A stretch of 64,000 bases of DNA, taken from assembly GCF_003018255.1 (NCBI RefSeq), contig NZ_CP027440.1; one strand, written 5' to 3'. The notes under the pieces were generated by a model. That model saw only the letters and a program-made list of their open reading frames with translations. It had not been told where the DNA came from and searched no databases. Positions 59,860 through 59,877 of the stretch are shown piece by piece; position 1 is the first letter of the stretch; each line of letters opens with the position of its first letter. The position numbers and the translations under genes are program-made. This DNA is from Escherichia coli. Its GTDB lineage: Bacteria > Pseudomonadota > Gammaproteobacteria > Enterobacterales > Enterobacteriaceae.

Positions 59860-59877
59860 ATGTTCGATAACGAACAT
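59860..59877. promoter_or_regulatory. GlpR operator palindrome in glpD promoter
   Basis: Perfect 18-bp palindrome atgttcgataacgaacat, 34 nt upstream of the glpD ATG. Confidence 0.7.

Follow-up and report, generated by a model that had tools for sequence, protein, structure and literature searches.

The DNA shortly upstream of glpD in this Escherichia coli chromosome very probably carries the GlpR operator that represses the gene. The element occupies positions 59859–59878 (no strand assigned) of the window, by which we mean the whole 64,000-nucleotide stretch of DNA that was analysed, and it is a 20-bp site enclosing the 18-mer ATGTTCGATAACGAACAT at 59860–59877. On every sequence-level measure that was applied, this 18-mer is OD1, the primary operator of the glpD promoter, and a member of the GlpR operator family. 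The repressor role, which the first-pass annotation had put forward, is supported by the match to the GlpR consensus, by a tandem second site, by retention across species and by an intact glpR gene. The glpD operator is already known; it is textbook biology and no discovery, and the value of the present work is one of annotation, one of the best-characterised repressor–operator pairs of E. coli having been found again. What was established here directly from the DNA comprises the sequence, the single full match to the consensus, the tandem arrangement, the conservation of the promoter context, the intact glpR gene and the identity to K-12.

Reading the window directly bears out the coordinates and letters that had been given for the 18-mer. 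Its distance to the gene, put at 34 nt, is right when counted from its last base to the A of the glpD ATG at 59911, which leaves 33 nt intervening. It had also been called a perfect 18-bp palindrome, and this part has to be corrected: positions 8 and 11 are A and A, so that eight of nine pairs are symmetric, with perfect 7-bp arms (ATGTTCG/CGAACAT) flanking ATAA. Such symmetry is at chance level. In the window, 8/9 or more symmetric pairs are reached by eight 18-mers, compared with 6.5 ± 2.4 in shuffled sequences, and 9/9 by none; palindromy was therefore rejected as a functional signal. Three 18-mers with 8/9 dyad symmetry also fall within about 90 bp at 23083–23174, at the nudE start and in the nudE–igaA intergenic region. 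What stands above chance at glpD is the match to a specific consensus, not the symmetry, with position and cross-species conservation adding to it.

The 20-mer at 59859–59878, TATGTTCGATAACGAACATT, agrees with WATGTTCGWTAWCGAACATW, the GlpR operator consensus, at 20 of 20 positions. No other site in the window has three or fewer mismatches, where 0.03 would be expected in 64 kb, and when four mismatches are allowed the window yields two sites, both within the glp locus. The consensus (WATGTTCGWT-AWCGAACATW) comes from the Larson laboratory's work, and historically it was derived in part from OD1 itself. The full score is thus partly circular, and for this reason the consensus was checked independently on other GlpR sites. 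Two glpTQ GlpR sites of RegulonDB are printed in Supplementary Table 1 of PMC7804116; both, which carry the halves ATGTTC and AACGAAC, were recovered by the consensus, a check that is partly non-circular. In addition, sites with up to six mismatches number three in the 424 bp upstream of K-12 glpF and two in the 272-bp K-12 glpT–glpA spacer, a density at these control regions about 35-fold that of the window (0.2 per kb).

OD1 does not stand alone. A second, weaker GlpR operator, OD2, is predicted at 59879–59898 (TATGAGCTTTAACGAAAGTG, no strand assigned), where 14 of 20 positions agree with the consensus, and it abuts OD1 directly in an exact 20-bp register. Together the two form, by a clear distance, the best tandem pair in the window: their mismatches sum to six, versus 16 for the next-best pair from which OD1 is absent. 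Across the Enterobacteriaceae OD2 is nearly invariant, its non-consensus bases included. Common polymorphisms within E. coli (59880 A>G; 59884 G>A, the latter seen in O157:H7, among others) affect OD2, the weaker operator, and not OD1.

Conservation was followed with a GlpD-anchored scan of 80 Enterobacteriaceae loci (86–99% protein identity), which gave 76 usable species besides the window. A site with at most four mismatches lies 31–35 nt before the glpD ATG in all 76 of these species, that is, in 77 of 77 sequences when the window is counted. The right half of OD1, CGAACATT, and the CG cores are almost invariant across species, and drift is seen in the glpE-proximal spacer and in the leader beyond OD2. 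The conserved block extends over the whole of approximately 59790–59898, so the palindrome is not singled out by it. Within OD1 it is the left arm that varies (window positions 59863–59864), reading ATGTTCG, ATGCTCG or, in most genera, ATGAGCG, and the right arm shows no compensating change. The fully consensus left half ATGTTCG is limited to Escherichia and some Citrobacter and Salmonella; since it is confined to these few lineages and the right half is fixed, the near-palindrome of OD1 is, judged on the sequences compared, lineage-specific. The ATGAGCG left half of most Enterobacteriaceae points to the positions at which GlpR tolerates change. Among complete E. coli genomes, the exact 32-mer 59853–59884 is present in 4,924 of 5,426, and three variants that were inspected alter OD2 or the flanks, never OD1.

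The gene context is as had been described, with GlpR encoded in a divergent glpEGR operon. Downstream of the operator, glpD (59911–61416, plus strand) matches NCBIfam NF008899 with 838 bits (E 2.8e-252) and is annotated as glpD in an identical E. coli genome. On the minus strand lie glpE (59395–59721; NF001195, full length), glpG (58520–59350; NF008155, full length) and glpR (57745–58503), the last gene of the divergent glpE–glpG–glpR cluster. The latter encodes an intact DeoR-family repressor of 252 aa, which matches the equivalog NF008154 over residues 1–252 of 252 with 553 bits (cut-off 331). The window as a whole is a segment of the E. coli chromosome running from cysG to glpD; the stretch tested shows 100% identity with strain JNE23-011 and was found in 5,425 of the 5,426 complete E. 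coli genomes. Downstream of glpD, at 61470–63567 and beyond on the minus strand, are two hypothetical genes, a YbbD-family gene and a fimbrial gene, a strain-variable insertion at the place where K-12 has yzgL and glgP. Between pckA and envZ (31588–32260), a RelE/ParE-family toxin gene and a NadS-family gene form a small accessory toxin–antitoxin-like pair.

K-12 MG1655 is identical base for base from the upstream CRP-like site described below through the glpD ATG, and because of this identity the K-12 results transfer directly. The OD1/OD2 element of K-12 is the same and stands in the same gene context, and its tandem 20-bp sites reportedly overlap the −10 element and the leader (Ye and Larson 1988, J Bacteriol 170:4209; Yang and Larson 1996, J Bacteriol 178:7090). 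The difference lies outside the element: glpR is intact and full length here, whereas the MG1655 copy is annotated as a pseudogene (L002, 349–1106). This annotation matters for the transfer of K-12 regulation data.

The glpD promoter has a putative extended −10 element, TGcTAATAT (59853–59861, plus strand), which was recognised by eye and by its conservation and whose last three bases fall inside OD1. The TTGCTA of this region is invariant, and most species carry TGCTATTAT, which agrees with TATAAT at five of six positions and has a TG upstream. A scan of the glpE–glpD spacer with the consensus sigma-70 promoter called no promoter; the −10 element was missed because the −35 is weak. From the end of the −10 element at 59861, we infer that glpD transcription starts near 59868–59869, at the centre of the dyad. 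This agrees with the start that Ye and Larson reportedly placed 42 nt before the ATG in 1988; in their work and that of Yang and Larson in 1996 the footprints of the tandem OD1 and OD2 reportedly run from the −10 element to about 30 bp past the start. The interval 59859–59898 would be exactly the K-12 stretch that was footprinted under these names. The supplementary tables of two genome-wide TSS papers gave no match for a mapped glpD start, and our literature search returned no SELEX, ChIP-exo or footprint data with coordinates for GlpR at glpD; for the operator sequence or consensus, the full-text literature search found nothing relevant. One genomic-SELEX paper gives different hexamers for the glpE–glpD spacer (PMC3946193).

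These elements suggest how repression would work; that GlpR binds, that it does so cooperatively, which inducer releases it and exactly where transcription begins are taken from the literature. GlpR, whose gene lies 1.4 kb off in the divergent glpEGR cluster, would recognise the inverted half-sites TATGTTCGAT and AACGAACATT at 59859–59878, and a second repressor unit would bind cooperatively on the abutting weaker operator at 59879–59898. The 40-bp stretch thus occupied would extend from the end of the −10 element across the transcription start and about 30 bp into the leader. Since GlpR bound on OD1 and OD2 would cover the DNA from −10 to about +30, RNA polymerase would be blocked, and sn-glycerol-3-phosphate, by lowering the affinity of GlpR, would de-repress glpD. 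In the published record, glpD is one of the four classical GlpR-repressed operons (PMC7567609, which cites the two footprinting papers); GlpR acts as the repressor of glpD, and glycerol-3-phosphate releases it (PMC4117983); and glpD carries multiple GlpR sites (PMC7567609; PMC4117983).

The same control region holds sequences resembling the sites of other regulators, and this bears on the question of whether the 18-mer might be bound mainly by one of these (a DeoR-family paralogue, ArcA or CRP), with GlpR acting elsewhere. A CRP-like site, TGTTAtacataTCACT (59798–59813, no strand assigned), common to the divergent glpE and glpD promoters, has two mismatches to TGTGAN6TCACA. Sites of this quality occur in the window at chance frequency (21 found versus 25.5 expected), and this one is conserved across species. 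It fits the single CRP site reported in the glpEGR–glpD spacer for glpEGR and glpD (PMC3105977). Further downstream, over the presumed −35 region (59818–59838), is a conserved direct repeat, AATGTTttttcAATGTTAcct, in which ATGTT recurs 11 bp apart and which resembles, in its sequence, an ArcA-P direct-repeat site; glpD is repressed anaerobically, and an ArcA-like repeat fits this. The proximity of the two sites, and the fact that many DeoR-family paralogues of E. coli (AgaR, SrlR, YgbI, DeoR, YciT and others) score against the GlpR sequence, lend the idea of another regulator some substance. Against it, both the ArcA-like repeat and the CRP-like site are separate elements upstream of the 18-mer, the half-sites of the 18-mer match the independently listed glpTQ sites of GlpR, and glpF and glpT–glpA show an enrichment of similar sites. 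DeoR (TGTTAGAA/TTCTAACA) and the other paralogues reportedly use operators that differ from the OD1 sequence, which also counts against this reading. We therefore regard it as very unlikely that GlpR is not the main ligand.

The inverted repeat could also be read as a nucleic-acid hairpin and not as a protein site: as RNA it would be a stem–loop of the glpD leader, as DNA a cruciform. Folding of 59850–59915 as RNA does place a stem of 7 bp, closed by a 4-nt loop, on the 18-mer, along with a second small hairpin at 59884–59897, and the fold energy of −14.3 kcal/mol is lower than that of shuffled sequences (z = −2.5). The comparison of species, however, tells against a conserved helix. Among 62 distinct sequences, none of the 12 predicted pairs shows a compensatory change, and the stem pairs 4/15 and 5/14 are broken in 50 and 44 of them, respectively; the covariation score does not exceed the shuffled level (0.032 versus 0.030) and was reached by 98 of 500 shuffles. 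With pairing not kept by compensatory changes and two of seven stem pairs broken in most species, the hairpin was rejected. A left arm that drifts without compensation beside a fixed right arm is the pattern expected of protein-recognised half-sites, here of unequal weight, and not of a helix. Moreover, given a −10 at 59856–59861, the transcript would begin in the loop and lack the left arm, and no T-run follows the stem. The hairpin is thus an extremely unlikely account of the repeat. That the palindrome is a functionless chance occurrence in an AT-rich intergenic region has virtually no probability and is effectively refuted by the conservation data: although its 8/9 symmetry is no more than chance provides, the site combines a unique full consensus match with a tandem second site, and it is retained with a constant spacing to glpD in 76 species and essentially unchanged in thousands of E. 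coli genomes.

With the 18-mer taken as OD1, several likenesses and differences to known systems can be noted. First, the GlpR operators of glpFKX and of glpTQ/glpACB, known from RegulonDB and from work by Weissenborn (1992), Larson (1992) and Zhao (1994), use the same 20-bp dyad half-sites (variants of ATGTTCG/CGAACAT), with multiple sites per control region, some of them in 20-bp tandem register as well (L003, 1170 and 1190). They are, however, far weaker, with 5–7 mismatches, and the glpD site alone matches the consensus perfectly. Such weak matches are in keeping with a published remark that many of the GlpR sites in RegulonDB depart widely from the consensus (PMC7567609). Second, lacO1 of LacI and the DeoR operators are likewise imperfect dyads over a start site, served by an oligomeric repressor that a metabolite releases and accompanied by distant looping operators. 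They differ in repressor family and half-site, and glpD adds to distant sites an auxiliary one that abuts directly in a 20-bp register. Third, internal operators OD3 and OD4 have reportedly been found inside glpD, at about +568 to +609. They were not recognised by sequence within the gene, where the best candidates, at 7–10 mismatches, are at chance density: the interval around +568 to +609 holds only consensus matches with 9–10 mismatches, and candidates with 7 mismatches, which lie at 60222, 60315 and 60648, are no denser than background. The last two of these are found in other species as well, though within coding sequence.

Besides OD1, a single site in the window has four or fewer mismatches, a candidate GlpR-like box at 58521–58540 (TATTTTCGTTTTCGCGCATT, 16/20, no strand assigned). 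It lies 18 nt ahead of the glpR start codon, at a distance of 1.34 kb from OD1, and overlaps the last codons and the stop of glpG; a homologous candidate box, matching at 17–18 of 20 positions, is found in many Enterobacteriaceae genera. Two arginine codons within it are the rare CGA in 60 and 63 of 67 species, respectively, and CGA makes up 2.1% of glpD arginine codons at the same loci. Since CGA is thus used in about 90% of species here, against about 2% in glpD, the bias indicates a constraint at the nucleic-acid level. From its sequence, the box is a plausible unrecognised operator. The literature searched contained no description of a GlpR site at the glpG/glpR junction; glpEGR is stated not to be GlpR-regulated (PMC2593051), and two promoters within glpG drive glpR (PMC5442614).

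Having raised this candidate, we would note that its being a real GlpR site, used for glpR autoregulation or as a distal looping anchor for glpD repression, is a possibility that we hold only tentatively and consider rather doubtful. If true, both roles would run counter to published work, in which glpEGR is not under the control of GlpR. The conserved box at the glpG/glpR junction offers a cheap target for testing GlpR autoregulation, and if it is real, the glpD operator may have partners beyond the published tandem and intragenic ones.
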